From the NCBI GenBank assembly GCA_963737065.1, contig CAVTRC010000001.1:1376001-1440000 (forward strand): a stretch of 64,000 bases of DNA, given 5' to 3'. Below the pieces are notes generated by a model. The model was given only the letters and a program-made list of their open reading frames with translations. It searched no databases and was not told where the DNA came from. Each line of letters opens with the position of its first letter. Within the stretch, counting starts at the first letter, position 1. Position numbers and translations under genes: made by a program. This document shows, piece by piece, positions 47,757 through 59,473 of the stretch. The DNA is from Candidatus Eremiobacteria bacterium (GTDB taxonomy: Bacteria; Vulcanimicrobiota; Vulcanimicrobiia; Vulcanimicrobiales; Vulcanimicrobiaceae).

Positions 47757-47938
47757 TCGGTGTGGAACAGCAGCCGCATGGCGCTATATCCGCCGACCGC
47801 GAGGCCAACGATCAAGCCCACGAACGCCCACATTGGCTGGCCCGTACGAGCACCGACGAAGATGCCGAGGAGTAAGCCGGCAAGCGTCGCGCCGGCAAGC
47901 GTGCTGCCGGCAGCAATAACCGGGACGGCATCCTTCAT
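47753..47938 (-). CDS. AtpZ/AtpR-like small membrane protein
   Basis: Gly-rich two-TM protein MKDAVPVIAAG... at the head of the atp cluster. Confidence 0.7.
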   Translation of the reverse strand: MKDAVPVIAAGSTLAGATLAGLLLGIFVGARTGQPMWAFVGLIVGLAVGGYSAMRLLFHTE

Positions 47939-49092
47939 GAAGCAACGGCGCCGAACGGCTCGGGATACGGCGTTCCCGCGTGACGGGCCAAGAGCCATTC
48001 GACGATGCGCTCCGAGGCATGTCCGTCGCCGTACGGGTTCGCGGCACGCGCCATGCGCGCAAAGTCGACTTCATCGACGAGCAAACGACGCGCCGCGTCG
48101 ACGATTTTTGCCCGGTCGTGTCCGACGAGCTCGAGCGTACCGGCCTCAAGCCCCTCCGGGCGCTCGGTCTCGTCGCGCATCACCAGGACCGGTTTACCGA
48201 GACACGGCGCCTCTTCTTGCAAGCCGCCGGAGTCGGTTAGAACGAACGTCGCCGCTTTGACGGCGGCGACCATGTGCGCGTAGTCGATCGGCTGCACGAG
48301 CACGACGCCCGGAACGTTATCGAGCACGTCGAGCGCAACCGGACGGACGTGCGGCGAGGGATGCACGGGCCAATAGATTTGCGGGCGTTGCGGCAGCCCG
48401 GCGATGTCGCGCATCGCTTCGCACATCTCGCGCATGTGCGGGTGATTCTCGCGACGATGCGCGGTCACGACGATGATGGGACGCGAGCGATCGAGCAGAT
48501 CGAAATCGGGCGGCTTGGGAAGATTGCTGCGGTTCGCGGTCGCGAGGAATGCGTCGATGACCGTGTTGCCCGTGACGATGATGTCTTCGACGTTGACATT
48601 TTCGCGCAGCAGATGCTCGCGCGCGAGCATCGTCGGCGAAAAATGATAGCGCGCAATCGTCCCGGTCAAGCGGCGATTCATTTCTTCGGGATACGGAAGC
48701 CACGGATCGTTCGTCCGCAATCCTGCTTCCACGTGTCCCACGGGAACTTGCTGGTAAAACGCCGCAAGCGCAGCAGAAGTGCTCGTCGTCGTATCGCCGT
48801 GAACGAGCACGACGTCCGGCGTCGCCTCGTTCAGCACGGGCTCCATCCCTTCGAGCACGCGCGTGGTAATTTGCGTGAGCGTTTGATCGCGCGTCATGAT
48901 ATCGAGATCGTAGTCGGGAACGATCCCGAAGAGCTCGAGCAGATCGTCGAGCATCTGCCGATGCTGCGCCGTAACGCAGACGATGTCGTCGATCGCCGGA
49001 TGAGCGCGCAGCGCATGAACGACGGGAGCCATCTTGATGGTGTCCGGACGCGTTCCGAACACCGTCATCACGCGAAGTTTGTGATTCTCCAT
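47935..49092 (-). CDS. wecB: UDP-N-acetylglucosamine 2-epimerase (non-hydrolysing)
   Basis: VFGTRP, HVEAGLR, TAHRREN, TDSGGLQEEAP and NPYGDG. Confidence 0.97.
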   Translation of the reverse strand: MENHKLRVMTVFGTRPDTIKMAPVVHALRAHPAIDDIVCVTAQHRQMLDDLLELFGIVPDYDLDIMTRDQTLTQITTRVLEGMEPVLNEATPDVVLVHGDTTTSTSAALAAFYQQVPVGHVEAGLRTNDPWLPYPEEMNRRLTGTIARYHFSPTMLAREHLLRENVNVEDIIVTGNTVIDAFLATANRSNLPKPPDFDLLDRSRPIIVVTAHRRENHPHMREMCEAMRDIAGLPQRPQIYWPVHPSPHVRPVALDVLDNVPGVVLVQPIDYAHMVAAVKAATFVLTDSGGLQEEAPCLGKPVLVMRDETERPEGLEAGTLELVGHDRAKIVDAARRLLVDEVDFARMARAANPYGDGHASERIVEWLLARHAGTPYPEPFGAVAS

Positions 49093-49101
49093 AACGCAGC
49101 C

Positions 49102-50176
49102 CTAGATCGTGTGCTTGAAAACGTGCGTAAATTCACCCGAGAGCGCGAGCGCGACGACGCCGAGCAGGAAGCAGACGGCGTAGATCAACAGCACCGCCTG
49201 GCGTACATTCAGCCCAAAGCGGAAGATTAACTGGTGGTGAAAGTGGCCGCGGTCGGCTTCCGTAATTTTCTTCCCGGACCGCGCGCGACGCACGATCGCA
49301 GCGGCCGTATCGAGAATCGGTAATGCGAGCACGACGAGCGGCACGACAATGGAAATCGCAATCGCCGTCTTGCTTGCACCGATAACGGAAACCGTTGCAA
49401 ACACATAGCCGATAAAGAGCGAACCTGCGTCGCCCAAAAAGATCTTTGCCGGATTAAAATTGTATGGAAGAAATCCGAGCGCGCCGCCGGCGAGCGCGAT
49501 CACGACGAGCGCGACCACCGGATTGCCGTGCAGTACCGAGATAGCGAACAAAAATAGGCTTGAAATCGCGGCGAAACCCGAGAGCAACCCGTCGAGGCCG
49601 TCGATGAAGTTGATCGCGTTCATCATGCCGACATACCACAGCAGCGTAAGCGGTACACCGACGTACCACGGGAAATCGATCCAGTTCGAATTCGGATTGT
49701 GATCGAACGGATTCGTGATCCCCGGAATGATGAATCCGTACAACATAGAGATCAGCGCGACGATGATCTGCGCGAACAACTTGTTGCGCGGACGCATCTG
49801 CATGATGTCGTCCCAGACGCCGACGCCGAGGATCAATAGACTGCCGAAGAGCAGTCCGACGAGCCTGTGCACGGTATCGAATTGATCGCTCATCATGTCG
49901 AGCTTTTGGTGCACGCCGACATGCTCGAGCGGAGGGGAAGAGCGCGTACGGCGAGCTCAGCGCGAAGCCGAGCACCGCGAAGAGTGCAAAGGCGAACCCG
50001 AAAAACACCGCGAGGCCGCCGATGCGCGGCGTCGGATGCACGTGAACGTGACGGTCTTCACCGGTACCGACGACGATTTGTAAGTGCGTTGCAAGCTTGA
50101 TCACGAGCGGCGTTGCCGCGGCCGACACGGCGGCCGCAACCACGAAAGTCACGAGATAAATGAACGCAGCCGTCAC
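49102..50176 (-). CDS. wecA: Undecaprenyl-phosphate GlcNAc-1-phosphate transferase (WecA/TagO), frameshift near 49931
   Basis: HPTPRIGG in the first frame; GVWDD, NAINFIDGLDGL, FNPAKIFLGDAGS and DRGHFHH in the second. Confidence 0.85.
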
Positions 50177-50610
50177 GCGCGTGCCGCCTCGAGCGTCGCA
50201 AATTGCGCGATCGCGACGCCGGCCTCGGCGAGCAGTTCACTCGCAACGGGGTCGGGATACCCCATGTCGTAGACGATCTTTTGCAGGCCTGCGCTGATCA
50301 ACAGTTTCGAACAGTTCACGCACGGCTGATGCGTGCAGTACGCGAGGGAACCGGCGAGGCTAACACCGTGTAGGGCGCCTTGCACTATCGCATTTGCTTC
50401 CGCGTGCGTCGCGCGCGCGCAATGCTCGTTGACCACGATGCAGCCTGCCTCGGTGCAGTGCGCGACCCCGCGCGGCGCGCCGTTGTACCCCGTCGTCAGA
50501 ATCCGATGCTCGCGAACGAGCACGCAACCTACGGAAAGACGCGGACACGTTGCGCGCGTAGCGACGGTTCGCGCGATTTGCATAAAATACTCATCCCAGC
50601 CCGGGCGCAT
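50173..50610 (-). CDS. dCMP deaminase family (ComEB-like)
   Basis: RPGWDEYFM, TGYNG, HAEANA and PCVNC. Confidence 0.93.
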   Translation of the reverse strand: MRPGWDEYFMQIARTVATRATCPRLSVGCVLVREHRILTTGYNGAPRGVAHCTEAGCIVVNEHCARATHAEANAIVQGALHGVSLAGSLAYCTHQPCVNCSKLLISAGLQKIVYDMGYPDPVASELLAEAGVAIAQFATLEAARA

Positions 50611-50624
50611 CGTTCCGGCGATTC

Positions 50625-51293
50625 CTACGTATGTGCGCGCACTGCGTGCGGCACGGAGGTGAGACTGCCGAACATCCGGTCTCCGGCGTCGCCGAGGCCC
50701 GGAACGATATACGCGTGATCGTTCAACCCCGCATCGACTGCTGCGGCGACGATGGTAACGCCGGGATGCGACTCATGGATGTGCTCGACGCCCTCCGGCG
50801 CTGCGATCACGCAGACGAATGTCATCTTCCGCGCGCCGCGATCGACGAGCGCGTCGAGTGCGGCCACGCCCGAATGACCCGTGGCAAGCATCGGATCGAG
50901 TACGAACACGTGACGGTCTTCGAGCTGCGGCGGTACGTTTGCGTAGTAGGGCACCGCGCGCAAGGATTGCGGATCGCGATAGAAGCCGAGATGCGCGACG
51001 ACCGCGTCATCGATCACGTCGAGAAACCCCGGAAGCAATCCGAGACCGGCGCGCAGCACCGGTGCGACGACGGGGCGCGTTGCGATGCGTTCAGCCTTCG
51101 TTTCGATGAGCGGCGTCGTGACGTCGTAGTCGCGCAACGGCAACGAACGCGTTGCTTCGTAAGCGAGGAACGCGCCCAGTTCTTCGATGAGCGTCCGAAA
51201 AACCGGCGTCGGCGTATCACGGTCGCGCAAGCGCGCAAGTCGATCGGCGACGGCCGGATGTCGGACGACGTGCAACGCTTCGGAAGCGGGCAT
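50625..51293 (-). CDS. upp: Uracil phosphoribosyltransferase
   Basis: PVLRAGL, DPMLATG and YIVPGLGDAGDR. Confidence 0.97.
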   Translation of the reverse strand: MPASEALHVVRHPAVADRLARLRDRDTPTPVFRTLIEELGAFLAYEATRSLPLRDYDVTTPLIETKAERIATRPVVAPVLRAGLGLLPGFLDVIDDAVVAHLGFYRDPQSLRAVPYYANVPPQLEDRHVFVLDPMLATGHSGVAALDALVDRGARKMTFVCVIAAPEGVEHIHESHPGVTIVAAAVDAGLNDHAYIVPGLGDAGDRMFGSLTSVPHAVRAHT

Positions 51294-51361
51294 GCCCAAT
51301 ATTTAGGGCGGTCGCAATCCGAAGCCTTTACCGGCATGCGCGGGTTGCAACCGTCGTGGAG

Positions 51362-52870
51362 ATGGCGCGCGCGGCTCGATCGACCGGCGACCTGTGGGTC
51401 ATGATCGCGACGATCGTCGGGTCGAGCATGGCCTTCATCGACGGCATGGTCGTCACGCTTGCGCTGCCGTCGATTCAACGTCAATTTCATGCCGGAGCCG
51501 GCGACGTCGCCTGGATCGTCGAGCTGTATACGCTTGTCATTGGGTCGCTCATGCTCATCGGCGGCGCCCTTGCCGACATCTACGGGCGGAAACGGATCTT
51601 CACGTTCGGCGTGATTCTGTTTGCAATCGGCTCGGTTGGCTGCGGGTTTGCCTGGTCGATTCCATCGATGCTGGTCGCACGCGTGGTTCAAGGCTGCGGT
51701 GGAATGTTACTCATTCCGTCGAGCCTCGCAGTCCTCGGCGCGCATTTCACCGGCACGGCACGCGATCGCGCGATCGCGGCGTGGTCTGCATTCGGCGCGC
51801 TGACGTCGACGCTAGGCCCGATGGTCGGCGGCGCGCTTATCGATTCGCTGGGATGGCGCTCGGTTTTTTGGATCAACATTCCGCTTGCCGCACTGGTGCT
51901 GTATGCAACGAGCGTTCACATCGACGAAAGCCGTGATGACCGCGCGTCGCGCCACCTGGATTTCACCGGCTCAGCGTTGCTCACCGTTTCGCTCGGCGCA
52001 ATCACGTACGCGCTTATTCGCGGTAGTTCCATCGGCTGGCATTCGGTCTCGACGACCGGTACGGCGATTGCAGGCGTTGCCCTGATGGCAATCTTTGTCG
52101 CACGTGACACGCGCGTAACAAACCCACTCGTTTCGCCTGCAGTGTTCGCGTCGCGAACCTTCGGTACGGTCAACGTTGCAACGCTGCTGCTGTACGGCGC
52201 ACTCGGCGCGAACTTCTACGTGTTGCCGTTCGTGATGATTCAGGGTCATGGATATAACGCGCTGCAAACCGCCTTAGCGACGCTTCCATTGGGAATCTGT
52301 ATGGTTGCGCTCGCGCGTGTTGGCACGGCGCTCGGGCGCACGATCGGTATGCGCACCGTGCTTGCGATCGGCCCAATCGTCATTGCAGGCGGCTTTGTCG
52401 TACTCGCGCTTTTAGAACGGAATTCGACGTATGTAACGACGTTTTTCCCCGGCATTGTCATGATCGGTATTGGACTCGGACTAACTGTCGCGCCCCTGAC
52501 ATCGACGGTTATTGATTCCGTCGCGCCCGAACACGTCGGCATCGCGTCGGGCATCAATAACGCGGTTTCGCGCGTCGCCGGTTTACTTGCCGTCGCGGCA
52601 CTTACGATCGTTCTTGCGAAGTTGTACAACGCCTCGCTGGACCACTCGCTCGATGCCATGCGCGCATCGCCGCGGATACGAGCGGCGGCGAATGCACAAC
52701 GCGACCGCCTCGGCGGCGCTCGCTTCAAAAACGCGCAACTGCAGCTCGCATCAACGCGAGCGTTCGAGCAGGGATTTCAAGGCGTCGCACTCGGCTGCGC
52801 GACGCTGACGCTCCTCGCAGCAGTCGCCAACGCGCTCGGCATTCGGAACGACGAGTTGCAGGCCCGTTAA
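51362..52870 (+). CDS. MFS transporter, DHA2 (14-TM) family
   Basis: SSMAFIDG..V..ALP, ADIYGRKR, WRSVFWINIP and ASGINNAVSRVAG. Confidence 0.92.
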   Translation: MARAARSTGDLWVMIATIVGSSMAFIDGMVVTLALPSIQRQFHAGAGDVAWIVELYTLVIGSLMLIGGALADIYGRKRIFTFGVILFAIGSVGCGFAWSIPSMLVARVVQGCGGMLLIPSSLAVLGAHFTGTARDRAIAAWSAFGALTSTLGPMVGGALIDSLGWRSVFWINIPLAALVLYATSVHIDESRDDRASRHLDFTGSALLTVSLGAITYALIRGSSIGWHSVSTTGTAIAGVALMAIFVARDTRVTNPLVSPAVFASRTFGTVNVATLLLYGALGANFYVLPFVMIQGHGYNALQTALATLPLGICMVALARVGTALGRTIGMRTVLAIGPIVIAGGFVVLALLERNSTYVTTFFPGIVMIGIGLGLTVAPLTSTVIDSVAPEHVGIASGINNAVSRVAGLLAVAALTIVLAKLYNASLDHSLDAMRASPRIRAAANAQRDRLGGARFKNAQLQLASTRAFEQGFQGVALGCATLTLLAAVANALGIRNDELQAR

Positions 52871-52933
52871 AGGGCTGCGGCATACGAGGGTTTCTGCAAA
52901 TCGCGTGCGATATTGCGCTGTGGAGGGAAACGC

Positions 52934-53707
52934 TTGAAGAAACGGCTACGCACTTGGAAGACTCTGATCGAACAAGCCGTCGAGACGATGCCGGTAGAAT
53001 TCACATTGGCCGATATCGTGGTGCGGAAAACCGCGTTCGAGAAGCACTATCCCGAGAATCGTTTTATCGAAGCGAAGATTCGGCAAAGTCTACAAGTGTT
53101 GCGCGATCAAGGCGTAATCCGGTTTCTCGGACAAGGGCGCTATGAGCGACTCAATATGAAGCCGATATTCAGTCCATTGATTGACCAAACGATTGCAACG
53201 ACATACTCAAATAAGACCCAGTTTGCTCGTGTTGTCTTGGAGACGTGGGCAGAGCTAAACCTCTACTGCTTACATTGCGTGAACGATTCGTTGACCCGCC
53301 TTCCGCATAATACGCCTGTAGCGGACTTTGAATGTCAGTGCTGTGAGGCGCAATATCAACTTAAGGCAAAAGATGGCCGATTCGGCTCGAAGCTCAGTGG
53401 AGCAGCATATGCGCCAACGCTGAAGGCGAGCAAAGAACGTTCCATGCCCGAACACGTCCTGGTCGAGTACGACCGTCGCTTCTCGACGGTCGTTTTCGTC
53501 GACGCCCTTCCCGGATCCGCGATAACGCCGGAACGCGTTGTTGCAAGAGCCCGCCTTTCCGCAAGCGCGCGTCGTGCCGGATGGCAGGGGTGTACGATTC
53601 GCATCGACGGCATTGAACGCGTCGGGATCGTTAGGCCTTCAGGTTTGCCGAGAGAAGCGGTGCGGGCGGCATGGGCGCAGAGGATGAAAATGCGAGCCGC
53701 GGACTAA
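52934..53707 (+). CDS. DpnI-like (Dam-replacing family) nuclease with swapped domain order
   Basis: N-terminal HYPENRFIEAKIRQSLQVLRDQGVIRFLGQGRY (DpnI winged helix) followed by TQFARV..ETW..YCLHC..NTPVADFECQCC..YQLK..ARRAGWQGC (DpnI catalytic domain); GGAGGG RBS and TTG start. Confidence 0.85.
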   Translation: MKKRLRTWKTLIEQAVETMPVEFTLADIVVRKTAFEKHYPENRFIEAKIRQSLQVLRDQGVIRFLGQGRYERLNMKPIFSPLIDQTIATTYSNKTQFARVVLETWAELNLYCLHCVNDSLTRLPHNTPVADFECQCCEAQYQLKAKDGRFGSKLSGAAYAPTLKASKERSMPEHVLVEYDRRFSTVVFVDALPGSAITPERVVARARLSASARRAGWQGCTIRIDGIERVGIVRPSGLPREAVRAAWAQRMKMRAAD

Positions 53708-53971
53708 GATCTTGCAAGATTCTATGTTGGCGGCGTTCCGTTCAAAAACGAGTTGGATGATACGCTGCGTTGTTCGAATGTAGTGAAACCTTAGCAATTC
53801 GTAGGCGGCACTTACCATGCAATCATGCGTGCGGCAACAAACCTCGCCGACCTCTTCGTCGGGATAATAGAGGAATGCCCGCTTGATATGCTGGCCTTCA
53901 GCAGGGCATTGAGGATTGAGGCAAGGCCCGCAGCCGCCGTCATCGGACAGCGAAAACCGATACGTCTTCAC
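53639..53971 (-). CDS. Cys-rich hypothetical protein
   Basis: Begins 4 nt after the glyA stop; CGPCLNPQC...CCRTHDC; overlaps the 3' end of the DpnI-like gene. Confidence 0.4.
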   Translation of the reverse strand: MKTYRFSLSDDGGCGPCLNPQCPAEGQHIKRAFLYYPDEEVGEVCCRTHDCMVSAAYELLRFHYIRTTQRIIQLVFERNAANIESCKILVRGSHFHPLRPCRPHRFSRQT

Positions 53972-53975
53972 GCGA

Positions 53976-55223
53976 CTACGGGACCTCGAACCGGGATGTT
54001 AATTCGTGAACGCGGGCGCGGAGTTTGCCGACGTTCGCCTTGCCTTCGATATCCGCTAAGCCGTCAAGGATGATCCGTGCGACCTCGCGGCACTCGCTCT
54101 GGCCGAATCCGCGCGACGTGATCGCCGGCGTCCCGAGGCGAATTCCGCTTGCAACCATCGGTTTTTGCTGATCGTACGGAATCGCGTTTTTGTTCACCGT
54201 GATGCTGATCTCATCGAGATACTGCTCGACCGCTCTGCCGGTTAGGCCTTTCACCGACACGTCGACGAGCATCAGGTGCGTATCCGTGCCGCCGGCCACC
54301 AAGCGAAGGCCGCCGCGGACAAACTCTGCCGCCATAGCTTTCGCATTGTCGATGACTTGTTGCTGATACGTCTTAAACGACGGCCGTAGCGCTTCGCCGA
54401 AGGCGACCGCCTTCGCCGCGATCGTGTGCATCAGCGGACCGCCCTGAATGCCGGGGAACACGGTTTTGTCGATCGCTTGCGCGTATGCTTCTTTGCAGAG
54501 AATGATACCGCCGCGCGGTCCACGCAGCGTTTTGTGCGTTGTCGACGTGACGTATTCGGCGACCGGCACCGGCGACGGATGCAATCCGACCGCAACGAGC
54601 CCCGCGATGTGCGCCATGTCGACGAGGAGCACCGCGCCGATTTCATCGGCAATCTCACGGAACGGCGCATAGTCCATGGTTCGCGGATAGGCGCTTGCGC
54701 CGGCAATGATCATCTTCGGTTTGAATTCGCGCGCCTTGGCACGCACGTCGTCGAAGTCGATCAGCTCGCTGTCTTTGCGCACTCCGTACGCGACCGCGTT
54801 GTAGAGCTTTCCGCTGAAACTCACCTTGGTGCCGTGCGTCAAGTGGCCGCCGTGCGCCAGCGACATGCCGAGCACCGTGTCACCCGGCTGCAGTTGAGCC
54901 ATGAAAACCGCCATGTTGGCCTGCGCGCCCGCATGCGGTTGCACGTTTGCATGGTCGGCGGCGAAGATCGTGGTTAAGCGATCGATCGCGAGATTCTCGA
55001 CCACGTCGACGAACTCGCAACCGCCGTAGTACCGCTTGCCGGGATATCCTTCGGCGTATTTATTGGTCATCACCGACGCCATCGCTTCGCGAACGGCGCG
55101 ACTCGCATAGTTTTCCGAAGCGATGAGCTCCAAATTTTCTTTTTGGCGCCGCTCCTCGTTCGCGATCGCTTCAAAAACTTGCGGATCTTCGGCTTCGATA
55201 GCGGACGGTGTCAGGATGTCCAT
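53976..55223 (-). CDS. glyA: Serine hydroxymethyltransferase
   Basis: [21 protein letters not shown] and [12 protein letters not shown]. Confidence 0.99.
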
Positions 55224-55235
55224 AACTGCGTTCCT

Positions 55236-55763
55236 TTATAACAACTCTTTCGGCGTGATCGCGTCGCTTATGCTACCGGCTTCGATATCTTTGAGCGTGC
55301 GTTCGCGTTGTGCGTCGCCGAATTCAAAGAGTTGCTCGACGCGGTGCTTGTGACGTTTCCCGTCGGACGCGTCGCCGTCGAACGGCGTGTGCATGAAAAT
55401 GTCGACGAGGCGCTCCGTCATTTCCCATCCGGTGAGGCGTTCGGAGAGCGCGAGCACGTTTGCATCGTTATGCCGGCGTGAAAGCTCCGTCGCCAGCGGT
55501 TCGAATACCGCGGCGCAGCGAACGCCCGGAACTTTATTGGCTGCCATCGAGATTCCGAGGCTCGATCCGCACACGACTACGCCGCGATCGGCCTGGCCGC
55601 TTGCAACGGCTTCGCCGACGGCATATCCATATTGCGGATAATCGACCGGCGTATCGCTGTTCGTGCCGTAATCAATGATCTCGTGACCGCTCGCGCGCAA
55701 GATTTGCGCGATGCGATCCTTATAACCATAGCCGGCGTGATCCGCGCCGAGCGCGATTTTCAT
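55236..55763 (-). CDS. rpiB: Ribose-5-phosphate isomerase B
   Basis: GADHAG, VDYP, CGSSLG, ANKVPGVR and RHNDANVL. Confidence 0.95.
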   Translation of the reverse strand: MKIALGADHAGYGYKDRIAQILRASGHEIIDYGTNSDTPVDYPQYGYAVGEAVASGQADRGVVVCGSSLGISMAANKVPGVRCAAVFEPLATELSRRHNDANVLALSERLTGWEMTERLVDIFMHTPFDGDASDGKRHKHRVEQLFEFGDAQRERTLKDIEAGSISDAITPKELL

Positions 55764-55889
55764 TTGGACTGCGCTCCGCTCCACGCATAAACATCAGTCA
55801 TCGGGAAACTCTCCGCGAGGGCGGCCCAATAAACATTTTCGTGCGGACGAACATGTACCGGGACTCCGCCGAGTGAATCTTGCGATGCC

Positions 55890-56597
55890 ATGAAGCTAGC
55901 TTGCACGAGCAGCGCGTTCGCGGGTGCGCTGGATCGCGGAGATCTGACGCAGCTCGAAGTTCTCGATCACGCTGCTCGAGAGCTGAGGATCGACGGCATC
56001 GTCTTGGACGTGCGGCACTTTCCGCGGACCGATGCGGACTACCTCGCCCAAATAAAGAAGATGGCCACCGACCTCGGCTTGACGATCGCCGCGTTGGAAA
56101 GCCGCGACATGCTGACATGCGATACGTCGTCGATGCAACGTGTGCTTGCGGTGGCGTGCGCAGTCGGCAGCCCGTTGATCGCGGCTCCGCTTGGATCGGA
56201 GACACTGCTGCCGTGGAACGCGCAGCTCGCGAAACTCTCCGAAGCGGCGGGGCTTGCAAAGGCCGCAAACGTTACGCTCGCTTTGCGCAACGTGCCGGGG
56301 ACGTTTGCAGCGACGGCTTCAGATTGCAGGCGGGTGTCGAAGGAGACCGATTCCGCCTGGTTGCGGTACGGCATCGAGCCGTCCGCGTTCGATGCGGCGA
56401 GCGATTCGTGCGACCTCGTGGACCGCACCGTGCTGCTATGGTCCAACGCGTTCGCTCCGCCGGAGGCATTCCTAGCGGCGTGGCAATCGTTTTTGGGATT
56501 CGCCGTGCTCACCGGCGACGCGCCGGTATTGGAAATGACAAACGCGATCCGCCGTTGGCGTATCGCGCATGCACGATCCGTGCTCGACCGCAAATAG
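55890..56597 (+). CDS. Xylose-isomerase-like TIM-barrel protein (sugar phosphate isomerase/epimerase family)
   Basis: MKLACTS..., DYLAQIKKMATDLGLTI and AKAANVTLALRN; metal ligands appear degenerate. Confidence 0.7.
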   Translation: MKLACTSSAFAGALDRGDLTQLEVLDHAARELRIDGIVLDVRHFPRTDADYLAQIKKMATDLGLTIAALESRDMLTCDTSSMQRVLAVACAVGSPLIAAPLGSETLLPWNAQLAKLSEAAGLAKAANVTLALRNVPGTFAATASDCRRVSKETDSAWLRYGIEPSAFDAASDSCDLVDRTVLLWSNAFAPPEAFLAAWQSFLGFAVLTGDAPVLEMTNAIRRWRIAHARSVLDRK

Positions 56598-56768
56598 CGT
56601 CTGCCACGCGAGGCAACTGAACCTGCGGTCTCGCAGGTGGGTGCGGCCCGGGCGCCGGTACCGCAGGCTCGAGGCCCAAGCGATCCCGTCGTATCCGGAG
56701 CTGATGCTCCCTAGGTATCCAAGTCGGTTCGGCACCTATGCGTGGTGCGCGCTAAGCGCAGTCGAGCC
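56582..56768 (-). ncRNA. ssrS: 6S RNA
   Basis: About 187-nt rod: GCTCGACTGCG/TGCGGTCGAGC, TAGCG/CGCTA, CCACGC/GCGTGG and GAACC/GGTTC stems; CACCCACCTGC..GCAGGTTCA motif typical of 6S; extended -10 TGgTACTCT upstream. Confidence 0.8.
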
Positions 56769-56858
56769 TTGTTAGAGTACCACTTGCCGTCAAGCCGTCC
56801 TTGCCGGATCGCCGTTGGCGCTTGCGCGGGCGCCGGCACGGCGTGATTGAGCCGCGCT

Positions 56859-57350
56859 ATGCAGACACAACCCCTCGCCCGCGAACGGTACGTTCGCCAC
56901 GGACATCTCGACGTTCCGCGGAGCGCCGAGCGACAGTATGAAGCCGCAAAAGCGTACCTGTCGGGCGATCCGGTCGAGCGCCGTCTTTTTCAGCGATTAC
57001 AGCATCCCGCGGACGGCCGCCACTACGTTTTGGCAATCAATCACCGCAATAGCGATTACTTCGACCCGCGCAGCAACACGATCGGATGGGACCCGTATAG
57101 CGCGCTTCGCACCACGAACGGAGGGCGCCAGTCGCCGGCCCTCGGTCTCGGACATGAAATCGATCATGCGGTCGAAAAGCGTTCCAAGTCGCAGCGGCTG
57201 ATGAATCAATTCGATGCGCGCTACGATGACGCTGAAGAACGCCGTGTCATTCTCGGCAGCGAAACGCATGCCGCGCGCACGCTCGGTGAAGGCATTCGTC
57301 ACGATCATGCGGGAAGCGTGTATCACGTCGCTTCGCCGGTGATGCGATGA
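56859..57350 (+). CDS. Stand-alone HExxH zinc metallopeptidase-like domain (M91/Rhs C-terminal-like)
   Basis: IGWDP...SPALGLGHEIDHA...EERRVI..E...LGEGIRHDH. Confidence 0.7.
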   Translation: MQTQPLARERYVRHGHLDVPRSAERQYEAAKAYLSGDPVERRLFQRLQHPADGRHYVLAINHRNSDYFDPRSNTIGWDPYSALRTTNGGRQSPALGLGHEIDHAVEKRSKSQRLMNQFDARYDDAEERRVILGSETHAARTLGEGIRHDHAGSVYHVASPVMR

Positions 57351-57401
57351 TCGCGCCATCCTGGCGCGAGGAGAGCGTGCGAACGGGCAGAAGCCGCACG
57401 C

Positions 57402-58418
57402 ATGGGTCTCTCGCTCTCCATTACACCGCTTGCGCTCTCGCTTAAACATCCGTTCAAAATCGCGCGCGGCGAAACGTCCGTCGCACGCACCGCGCTCTTC
57501 CGAGTCAGTGACGGCACCGACGAAGGGATCGGCGAGTCGACGCCGATCGAGCGCTACGGCGAATCGCTCGAATCGGTCGAGCACTATTTCGAAGAAAACG
57601 AAATGACGCTCGATGACCCATTCCAGCTTGAACGTCTGCTGCACGAACGGATTCCCGCGGCGGCGCGCGAGGGGCTCGACCTCGCGCTGCACGATCTCAT
57701 CGGCAAGCGACTCGAGCAACCACTATACGCGTTGTTAGGACTCGATCCCGCACGGACGCCCGTGACTTCGTTCACGATCGGCATCAGTGATCCGGAAACG
57801 ACGCTGCGTAAACTTGACGAAATCGGCACGCATCCGGTCCTCAAAGTAAAGCTCGGATTGGGAAGCGCACGCGAACAAGTCGAAACGATGGCCGCAGTTC
57901 GGGGCCGCTACACGGGCACCATCCGAATCGATGCAAATGAGGGCTGGAACGTCGGGACCGCGATCGAGATTCTCGGTGAACTTGCGAAGTACGACATCGA
58001 GTTTTGCGAGCAGCCGATTCCGGCCGGCTCTCCGCAAGGACTCCGCGCGATTCGCGAACGATCCGAAATACCGATCGTCGCCGACGAAGATTCACTTACC
58101 GCTCGAGACCTGCCGCAATTGATCGGCTGCGTCGACGGCGTCAACGTAAAGCTCGCGAAAACCGGCGGCATTCGCGGCGCGGTCGCAATGATTCATGCTG
58201 CGCGTGCCCTCGGCATGAAGATCATGCTCGGCTGCATGGTCGAAAGCGCCATCGCGGCGACTGCGGCCGCGCACATTTCACCGCTCGTCGACTGGGCCGA
58301 CATCGACGGCCCGTTTTTGACGAAGGACGACCCGTTCAGCGGCGTTACGTATCAACACGGAAAATTGATCTTGCCCGATGAGCCCGGACTCGGTGTCAAA
58401 GAACGCGTCGCCGCATGA
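57402..58418 (+). CDS. Enolase-superfamily dipeptide epimerase (L-Ala-D/L-Glu epimerase/DgcA-like)
   Basis: KVKLG, DANEGW, EQP, ADED, NVKLAKTGG, GCMVES and DIDG. Confidence 0.92.
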   Translation: MGLSLSITPLALSLKHPFKIARGETSVARTALFRVSDGTDEGIGESTPIERYGESLESVEHYFEENEMTLDDPFQLERLLHERIPAAAREGLDLALHDLIGKRLEQPLYALLGLDPARTPVTSFTIGISDPETTLRKLDEIGTHPVLKVKLGLGSAREQVETMAAVRGRYTGTIRIDANEGWNVGTAIEILGELAKYDIEFCEQPIPAGSPQGLRAIRERSEIPIVADEDSLTARDLPQLIGCVDGVNVKLAKTGGIRGAVAMIHAARALGMKIMLGCMVESAIAATAAAHISPLVDWADIDGPFLTKDDPFSGVTYQHGKLILPDEPGLGVKERVAA

Positions 58419-59473
58419 AGCGCCGGCGCTATGCAATTCTCGCGCCCGGCAAGTTCGTTGACGACGCGAAAACGGCGCACGGCGTTATCGCGTACGGCGA
58501 AGACGATGTCGTGGCCGTCGTCGACGACGACTTCGCCGGAAAGCACGTGCACGATCTGCTTCCGCATCTGCGCAACGATGCACCGATCGTCGGCACCGTG
58601 GAAGAAGCGCTCGCATATCACCCGACGTCGTTGTTGATCGGAACCGCCCCGAAGGGCGGCGCTCTGCCGAATGCCTGGCGTAATGAAATTCTGCGTGCGA
58701 TCCGCGCCAAACTCGAGATCGTGAGCGGTCTGCACGATATGCTTGCGGACGACGAAGAGTTCGCGCAAGCGGCGCGTGCAAACGGCACCGATATTTGGGA
58801 CGTTCGCAAACCGCCGGCAACGCCGATCTTCTCGGGCGCAGCGTACGACGTCAAAGCGCCCGTCATGCTGATGGTCGGCAATGATTGCGCCGTCGGGAAG
58901 ATGACCGTTGCACTGGAGCTCGCGCGCGCAGCTCGCGACGCCGGCGCGCATGCGGAGTTTGTGCCGACGGGGCAAACCGGCATCATGATCGCCGGTTGGG
59001 GGATTTCGATCGACCGCGTAATCGCGGACTTCGCACCGGGCGCCACCGAATTGCTAGTGCTCGAAGCGGCATCGCGCAATCCGGACGTCATCATCGTCGA
59101 AGGACAAGGATCGATCAACCATCCTGCGTACGCGCCGGTGACGCTCGCGCTGATGTACGGCGCGGCGCCCGACGCGCTCGTCCTCGTGGTCGATCCGCTA
59201 CGGCCGACGATCGAGAGCTACGCGACGCCGACGCTCGGTTATCGCGAGCTCATCGGCATTCACGAAGCATTGCTTGCGACCGTGAAGCCCGCGCGCGTCA
59301 TCGGCATCGCACTGAACACGCGCAAACTCGACGATCCGGCCGCGCGTCGCGAGATCGAGCGCGCGAAAGCCGAGACGACGCTGCCCGCGGACGATGTCGT
59401 CCGTTACGGTCCGCACGCGCTGTACGCGGCGATCGCACCGGCACTGCACAAAGAGCGTCCGTGCGGCGCATAG
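58415..59473 (+). CDS. DUF1611 protein (DgcN-like)
   Basis: AKTAHG, SGLH, GNDCAVGKMT, TGQTG and VEGQGSINHPAY. Confidence 0.9.
   Translation: MKRRRYAILAPGKFVDDAKTAHGVIAYGEDDVVAVVDDDFAGKHVHDLLPHLRNDAPIVGTVEEALAYHPTSLLIGTAPKGGALPNAWRNEILRAIRAKLEIVSGLHDMLADDEEFAQAARANGTDIWDVRKPPATPIFSGAAYDVKAPVMLMVGNDCAVGKMTVALELARAARDAGAHAEFVPTGQTGIMIAGWGISIDRVIADFAPGATELLVLEAASRNPDVIIVEGQGSINHPAYAPVTLALMYGAAPDALVLVVDPLRPTIESYATPTLGYRELIGIHEALLATVKPARVIGIALNTRKLDDPAARREIERAKAETTLPADDVVRYGPHALYAAIAPALHKERPCGA

Follow-up and report, generated by a model that had tools for sequence, protein, structure and literature searches.

The locus described here raises the question of whether a DpnI-family protein whose two domains are joined in reverse order is a genuine gene product, and of what it would do in its host. 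The gene lies at positions 52,934 to 53,707 of a 64,000-nucleotide stretch, hereafter the window (positions 1,376,001 to 1,440,000 of contig CAVTRC010000001.1, assembly GCA_963737065.1), from a Candidatus Eremiobacteria bacterium, and in its product a winged-helix (wH) domain precedes the catalytic domain. Few enzymes are used as widely in molecular biology as DpnI. Each of its domains reads the same methylated site on its own, and there is crosstalk between the two; natural proteins in which the linkage is reversed offer, for this reason, a test of how linkage geometry bears on specificity and on the requirement for two sites. We found that the gene is real and intact, was acquired by horizontal transfer, and belongs to a wH-first branch of the DpnI family that is monophyletic. 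It probably encodes an active, solitary, Gm6ATC-dependent (type IIM or type IV-like) defence endonuclease, whose wH reader moved from the C- to the N-terminus. The parts of the gene, in window coordinates, are as follows.

52934..53707, plus strand: gene of the wH-first DpnI-family protein, 257 amino acids (aa), stop codon included, intact (open reading frame (ORF) list, Pfam and phmmer).
52922..52927, plus strand: Shine-Dalgarno-like GGAGGG, 6 nt 5' of the TTG start codon (direct reading; homologues begin at the equivalent position).
52949..53146, plus strand: N-terminal DpnI-type wH domain, aa 6-71 (Pfam PF17726, alignment to 4esj, wH-fold matches).
53147..53179, plus strand: inter-domain linker, aa 72-82, new to the wH-first form (homologue alignment, BLASTP comparison).
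53180..53632, plus strand: catalytic PD-(D/E)xK domain of DpnI type with a Cys4 zinc site, aa 83-233 (Pfam PF06044, structure alignment).
53651..53701, plus strand: C-terminal helix, aa 240-256, with conserved V243-R244-x-x-W247 (counterpart of the start of the canonical DpnI inter-domain linker).

Both domains were detected with Pfam scores that far exceeded chance. PF17726 (DpnI_C) matched aa 6-71 with an E-value of 1.2e-19 and 70.7 bits (cut-off 23), and PF06044 (DpnI) matched aa 83-233 with an E-value of 1.3e-37 and 129.6 bits (gathering cut-off 26.7). These positions are the reverse of the canonical layout, in which the catalytic domain comes first and the wH last, as in R.DpnI. Comparison with the DpnI chain of PDB entry 4esj by phmmer (E 9.5e-36) gave two stretches in swapped positions, query residues 87-231 aligning with 4esj 12-155 and residues 8-73 with 4esj 191-257. 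The protein also matched, again in two stretches, the PADLOC model PDLC03207 for mREase_II, a type II methyl-directed restriction enzyme (E 3.5e-43). The initial annotation of this DNA had read the reversed order from the letters and an ORF list, and both profiles matched in the order that it claimed; its further observations, a total length near that of canonical DpnI, a YQLK motif and two CxxC pairs, were also found as described. The same arrangement was seen in an AlphaFold2 model built from 67 homologues (mean predicted local distance difference test, pLDDT, 91.3; predicted template modelling score, pTM, 0.71), with the wH fold at the N-terminus and the DpnI catalytic fold at the C-terminus. 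The top Foldseek match of the model was DpnI 4kyw_A (E 2.2e-17). Upon VIA-align comparison, model residues 79-255 lay on 4kyw_A 1-180 with a Z of 24.8 and a root-mean-square deviation of 1.6 Å over 176 residues at 30% identity, and residues 1-75 aligned with winged-helix domains at a Z of about 10. One relative already carries the database name 'DpnI domain-containing protein', and the other cluster names, 'type II restriction enzyme' or 'restriction endonuclease', are uninformative.

The residues of DpnI that form the active site and contact the bases and methyl groups were taken from the available portions of PMC4117772 and PMC3424567, the latter of which also describes the zinc site, and were mapped onto the query through the phmmer alignment to 4esj, where the chain index minus 3 equals the published numbering. 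Conservation was scored in the 120 best 90%-identity clusters, which were 54-69% identical to the query. The codons of the active site are listed below.

53240..53242, plus strand: codon E103, equivalent to DpnI E25, the helix glutamate of the active site (invariant, 120/120).
53324..53326, plus strand: codon D131, equivalent to DpnI D53 (invariant, 120/120).
53357..53365, plus strand: codons Q142-L143-K144, equivalent to DpnI E64-L65-K66 (Q and K invariant, 120/120).

E25, D53 and K66 thus map to E103, D131 and K144, and Q142 in place of E64, a ligand of the site-1 metal according to the part of PMC4117772 at hand, is the one substitution. All seven residues with which the catalytic domain of DpnI reads Gm6ATC (Q18, N48, R126, L129, R135, W138 and G140) were kept: the base readers Q18, N48, R126 and R135 correspond to Q96, N126, R205 and R214, and the methyl-pocket residues L129, R135, W138 and G140 to L208, R214, W217 and G219. 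The wH recognition helix A47-K48-I-R50-Q51 corresponds to E228-K229-I-R231-Q232 of DpnI, and three of the four methyl contacts of this domain were retained, K229, R231 and Q232 as K48, R50 and Q51, the fourth, E228, being A47 in the query. Across the homologue set, E103, D131, Q142, K144, Q96, R205, L208, R214, G219 and all four cysteines of the zinc-site CxxC pairs (C112/C115 and C134/C137) were invariant (120/120), and N126 and W217 were each present in 119/120. Invariance of catalytic and reader residues alike suggests that purifying selection maintains a functional active site and reader, and the pattern appears to be the signature of a working enzyme with DpnI specificity and no decay. 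A possibly altered specificity had been proposed for this protein; with the seven catalytic-domain readers all in place, and three of four wH contacts, nothing indicates such a change and the proposal is unsupported.

The QxK motif had likewise been associated with the reversed architecture, and the wider family was examined for it. Exhaustive searching of 1.84 billion cluster representatives with phmmer returned 1224 matches at E <= 0.001, and architecture and E/Q state were counted in the best 150 of these, the nearest 50%-identity cluster representatives. The order was catalytic domain then wH (cat-wH) in 115, wH then catalytic domain (wH-cat) in 16, of which 7 were full length, and 19 had the catalytic domain alone. 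At the position of E64, the 115 canonical proteins carried E in 60 and Q in 55. The sampled family is thus better written (E/Q)xK, and the idea that Q is peculiar to the reversed order is not supported. As judged from these alignments, QxK sites are widespread in the family, and that roughly one in two of the canonical relatives sampled has one is noteworthy in its own right. PD-QxK is also given as a Mrr-type catalytic motif in the portion of PMC11037411 that was available.

A catalytic-domain tree of 136 rows was then inferred by a quick IQ-TREE search, after removal of rows with <135 of 171 columns filled; support was weak at most deep branches. The 12 wH-first rows all fell in one clade (SH-aLRT 96), which also took in 4 fragments truncated at the N-terminus. 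The domain order switches once on this tree, and the E/Q state at least 10 times. The outside row closest to the reversed clade was a canonical QxK protein, P0143 (SH-aLRT 84). A single origin of the wH-first architecture is therefore well supported by the catalytic-domain sequences, and the sister placement of P0143 is moderately supported by them. Since the reversed clade adjoins canonical QxK lineages and the E/Q state switches often, the glutamine was probably inherited from canonical ancestors. A divergent wH-first subclade (L075, L077, L079 and cluster P0131; 36-39% identical) keeps the D, the QxK and the RRAGW loop but has lost the second zinc-site CxxC pair.

How the two domains came to be exchanged was approached by BLASTP against a canonical-order protein, P0136 (253 aa). 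Query residues 4-73 aligned with P0136 183-252, reaching its C-terminus, and residues 88-233 with P0136 10-153, at identities of 44% for the wH and 40% for the catalytic domain. Within the linker, F79, S80, P81 and D84 are nearly invariant and lie at the junction of an old C-terminus, GRYxRL, and an old N-terminus, FSPLID; the conserved FSPLID..A..Y.S..Q that follows the new linker aligns with the N-terminus of a Corynebacterium protein of canonical order. By these alignments, the new termini lie within the old linker, and the old termini were fused through a conserved short linker. Duplication followed by truncation, or fission followed by re-fusion, would give such a joining. Among the 150 nearest cluster representatives, no wH-cat-wH intermediate of the duplication route was found; the longer proteins there were cat-wH-wH, or cat-wH with N-terminal extensions matching no Pfam family. 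The cat-wH-wH layout was seen in the canonical proteins P0146, P0150 and P0157, of 331-352 aa, in which the catalytic domain is followed by a tandem pair of wH domains.

That the gene was acquired horizontally is indicated by its position between the genes of an MFS transporter and of glyA, where two further features are distinguished.

52871..53975, no strand: 1105-bp insert, from the stop of the MFS transporter gene to the stop of glyA (blastn against the same-genus genomes G158 and G195).
53708..53975, no strand: insert tail, 268 bp, with an unconserved 110-aa minus-strand ORF inside.

When window positions 50500-56000 were compared by blastn with G158 and G195, homology stopped at 52860 and 52855 and restarted at 53976 and 53972, respectively, and in both genomes, which represent the insert-free site, the stops of the two flanking genes are 22-23 nt apart. 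The GC content was 54.4% for the gene and 53.0% for the tail, with flanks of 60-61%, and GC at third codon positions (GC3) was 0.59 in the gene versus 0.70-0.74 in the flanks. This points to acquisition as a cassette of ~1.1 kb between two convergent housekeeping genes. The co-oriented upstream gene ends 63 nt before the DpnI-like gene. In searches of 93 related loci and of the rest of the genome, this 63-nt leader and the 268-bp tail both lacked any similar sequence. No repeats flank the insert apart from short matches at chance level, and a promoter and terminator scan of 52600-54100 gave no candidate site. The ORF in the tail, which is Cys-rich (window 53639-53971, minus strand), shares 69 nt with the 3' end of the DpnI-like gene; it had no Pfam match and no tblastn relatives in the 93 related loci, and for these reasons is probably not a gene.

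The distribution of the gene was analyzed in 201 genomes across the phylum. Matches were found in 39 of them, the own genome included: 37/113 in the same family, 1/15 in a second family and 0/2 in the same genus. Every PF06044 match above the cut-off in this sample was at a wH-first locus, and the canonical-order form was not found in it. Of the 35 family genomes in which PF06044 matched, five carried clearly broken copies (G051, G083, G142, G148 and G157), and the copy of G130 was cut by contig ends. A second scan, of one genome per species, gave 64 loci, of which 54 were wH-first, a proportion that is biased toward wH because the wH motif was the seed; the remainder were wH-HNH, PLD-wH, lone wH or canonical Corynebacterium genes. 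Of the Corynebacterium loci L086 and L087, both seemingly collinear in the scan table, L087 was set aside after its sequence had been read, as it is canonical cat-wH with ExK. The wH-first loci with informative titles were almost all from Eremiobacterota/Vulcanimicrobiota (Cybelea, Elarobacter, Zemynaea, Tyrphobacter and Baltobacteraceae are among the names), plus one from Armatimonadota, and the reversed-order clade thus resides mostly in Eremiobacterota. Patchy spread, broken copies, low GC and GC3, and exact insertion with an empty site in congeners together resemble the behaviour of a defence gene.

A methylation-dependent nuclease would be expected in a host that does not methylate its own sites, and the initial annotation had held that the host should lack Dam methylation. 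In the host genome (3.08 Mb, 95% complete), no match was found to the methylase families D12/Dam (PF02086), N6_N4 (PF01555) or phage-Dam (PF05869). Two type I-like N6_Mtase (PF02384) loci, C1:2180466-2181313 and C1:2123899-2124486, contained in-frame stops or frame changes. The ten neighbour genes scanned (window 47938-59470) were housekeeping genes or of no known family; no methyltransferase was among them, in agreement with the solitary character that had been ascribed to the gene. GATC is abundant in the window, as had also been stated, with 513 sites, and occurs 25,849 times in the genome (observed/expected 0.987), a frequency that by itself is uninformative on methylation. Collectively, the genome content fits a Dam-negative host with a methyl-dependent nuclease.

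From these data, the following mechanism is proposed. The wH domain, through the helix AKIRQ, and the catalytic domain would each bind a Gm6ATC site methylated on both strands, and the catalytic domain would read the bases with Q96, N126, R205 and R214. The two methyl groups may be held in a pocket formed by L208, R214 and W217 and backed by G219. Hydrolysis would be metal-dependent and carried out by E103, D131, the side-chain carbonyl of Q142 and K144, and the Cys4 zinc site would stabilise the fold. In a host without GATC methylation, only incoming Dam-methylated phage or plasmid DNA would be cut.

Comparison with known systems places the protein closest to R.DpnI of Streptococcus pneumoniae (4esj, 4kyw; type IIM, Gm6A^TC). 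Both domains are homologous and the Cys4 zinc site is common to the two, as are the residues E25, D53 and K66, the seven catalytic-domain and three of four wH contacts, the length and the solitary gene without methylase; the query differs in its reversed order, in a new linker of 7-10 residues, in new termini within the old linker, and in Q142 for E64 and A47 for E228. The canonical proteins P0143 and P0136 share the QxK site and are nearest to the reversed clade in the catalytic tree, but keep the cat-wH order. Neisserial Drg (NmeBII), as described in the available part of PMC4269198, is a DpnI-family enzyme that cuts only Gm6ATC and is encoded in a low-GC cassette resembling a minimal mobile element. 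The query gene is also a low-GC cassette between conserved genes; Drg, however, is of canonical domain order and its gene stands in place of dam, whereas the query is flanked by glyA and the MFS transporter gene, without a visible dam remnant. Fusions of the wH have been catalogued by Helbrecht et al. 2024, and the accessible text (PMC11037411) lists PD-(D/E)XK-wH, wH-HNH, PUA-wH-HNH, wH-GIY-YIG, PLD-wH and wH-Mrr(PD-QXK)-NTPase. They resemble the query in using a DpnI-type wH as a sensor of adenine methylation, N-terminal in some, and in the QxK of the Mrr fusion; the Mrr catalytic domain, however, belongs to a different PD-(D/E)xK family and is accompanied by an NTPase. A wH followed by a DpnI-type catalytic domain was absent from the architecture list in that accessible text, the supplementary lists, which could hold wH-first forms, being outside the scope of this comparison, and our full-text literature search found no account of a wH-first DpnI-type enzyme. 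The domains are thus known, and the reversed architecture is new to the literature searched; it extends the catalogue of adenine-methylation sensors, and could give a Gm6ATC reagent with different properties.

Several observations weigh against reading this protein as an active Gm6ATC-dependent nuclease, and the main caveat came from two genomes of the same family. A DpnII-type nuclease was found in 3/113 family genomes, and in two of them, G024 and G113, an intact copy of the wH-first gene occurs together with an intact-looking GATC cassette.

G024, contig C56, 86000-97500: DpnII-type cassette L108 (PF04556 nuclease, D12 methylase and N6_N4 methylase).
G113, contig C2, 1422000-1429000: DpnII-type cassette L109 (PF04556 nuclease, D12 methylase and N6_N4 methylase).

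We take this set of one nuclease and two methylases to be the arrangement of the pneumococcal DpnII system. Cassette and gene are on the same contig, 3.3 kb apart in G024 and 120 kb apart in G113. The D12 methylase of G024 scored 180.7 bits with TIGR00571 'dam' of NCBIfam (cut-off 114.85), its best PDB match was DpnM, 2dpm (6e-31), and the wH-first copies of both genomes had the same residue as the query at all 20 positions checked. If both were expressed and the cassette methylated GATC, a DpnI-like enzyme would be suicidal. A further difficulty is the invariant A47, which replaces a wH contact of DpnI; moreover, no assay of the form with Q at the E64 position was found in the available text of the DpnI-family papers. 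Avoidance of D12 methylases across the family was also no more than a weak trend in the expected direction among non-independent kin, strong D12 methylases being found in 3/29 family genomes with an intact copy, 1/6 with a broken or partial copy and 13/78 without a copy; the genomes are related, and for this reason no statistical test was applied to the counts. Co-occurrence with PF02086, a family that is not GATC-specific, was 9/37 in genomes with the gene versus 19/76 in those without. Coexistence in G024 and G113 might be explained by chimeric metagenome assembly, a silenced partner, differing specificity or a QxK protein that is not lethal, and its weight is limited by the 50 further genomes bearing the wH-first gene, in none of which a DpnII nuclease was found. 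The expectation of Dam-free hosts appeared, from gene content, to hold for the present genome and to fail in these two, which are the place to seek departures from the textbook mutual exclusion of DpnI and DpnII. Coexistence in the two is also the sole observation that leaves room for a less ordinary function. Of the earlier interpretation as a whole, the reversed order and the solitary methyl-dependent nuclease remain, and the oddity of QxK, the altered specificity and the Dam-free state of all hosts are not supported.

The same observations are what alternatives to an active Gm6ATC nuclease would draw on. The protein could be an attenuated or non-cleaving reader of Gm6ATC that binds or slowly nicks, with a sensing or regulatory role or in need of a partner nuclease. 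Loss of the metal ligand E64 of DpnI (in the available portion of PMC4117772) to Q142, the intact copies beside intact DpnII-type systems in G024 and G113, an HNH nuclease gene adjoining in 15/54 related loci with remnants in 5 more, and the speculation, in the consulted part of PMC4269198, that neisserial Drg has a regulatory role via its wH domain would all agree with this. However, a mere binder would not be expected to keep E103, D131 and K144 invariant in 120/120, roughly every second canonical protein sampled has Q at the E64 position, and here, as in 6/54 related loci, the gene lies beside glyA without an HNH gene. Besides, coexistence with DpnII in 2/37 family genomes and 0/50 further ones is not above the rate implied by the available text of Helbrecht et al. 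2024 (PMC11037411), where <100 potential conflicts were noted among >1000 wH fusion proteins, validated families included. We regard such a reader as unlikely. It is quite improbable, too, that the wH-first QxK clade reads methylation and cleaves conditionally or with the help of a partner, in a way that a Dam+ host could tolerate, a possibility suggested by the intact gene beside a complete DpnII-type system in two genomes and by the HNH partner elsewhere; such cleavage may take the form of nicking, of a need for two sites in the reversed-order geometry, or of an activity restricted to some particular state of the DNA.

An active nuclease with a changed target, either another m6A context or a site geometry set by the reversed order, would account for coexistence with GATC methylation, and the new domain order, the strongly conserved linker (F79, S80, P81 and D84) and A47 at the E228 contact could be read in its favour. 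The contact residues are conserved, however (7/7 in the catalytic domain and 3/4 in the wH), AKIRQxLQ with A also occurs in the canonical Corynebacterium homologue and in PLD-wH and wH-HNH proteins, and wH fusions including PLD-wH and wH-GIY-YIG sense Dam-type methylation according to the accessible part of PMC11037411, so that a changed target also seems rather improbable. Finally, the clearly broken copies in 5/35 family genomes with a match, the unconserved 268-bp insert tail and the lack of any promoter- or terminator-like site in 52600-54100 would suit a silent or decaying passenger with no current function; against this stand the intact frame, from which no conserved residue is missing, a good ribosome-binding site and a start 63 nt 3' of a co-oriented gene, and we hold it to be very improbable. 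The solitary, modification-dependent defence nuclease proposed for this locus is thus probably the best reading.

Position next to the 3' end of glyA without an HNH gene is found, as mentioned, in six of the 54 wH-first loci as well. Elsewhere in the window, a 167-aa ORF (56847-57350, plus strand) carries an HExxH-like GHEIDH and belongs to no Pfam family.

In some related loci, the wH-first gene has nuclease-like neighbours. A protein of 306-316 aa with a C-terminal HNH motif is encoded next to the DpnI-like gene in 15 of the 54 wH-first loci, where its gene often overlaps the DpnI-like stop; remnants were seen in 5 more loci, and the HNH gene is absent from the window.

L007, 2232-3149, plus strand: HNH gene.
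L035, L040-L042, L048, L050, L052, L055, L062, L064, L073, L074, L077, L079 and L082: further HNH gene loci.

The pairing persists in a 37-38% identical subclade and in the Armatimonadota genome, and the order is inverted in L082. The N-terminal 195 aa of the HNH protein matched no Pfam family and gave a weak atlas lead to ScoMcrA-type DNA-sensing domains. A second protein, of 324 aa (L007, 488-1459, plus strand), matched no Pfam family and is repeatedly encoded close to the wH-first gene, with an order and orientation that differ between loci; by sequence reading, its C-terminal part resembles a PD-ExK nuclease motif, and its atlas leads were 'restriction endonuclease family', EVE, NucS_C and ScoMcrA_N. 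Loci with such neighbours look like islands of modification-dependent nucleases. A homologue of the 324-aa protein is also present in the own genome, about 124 kb off, at C1:1553106-1554066, where it is split over three frames.

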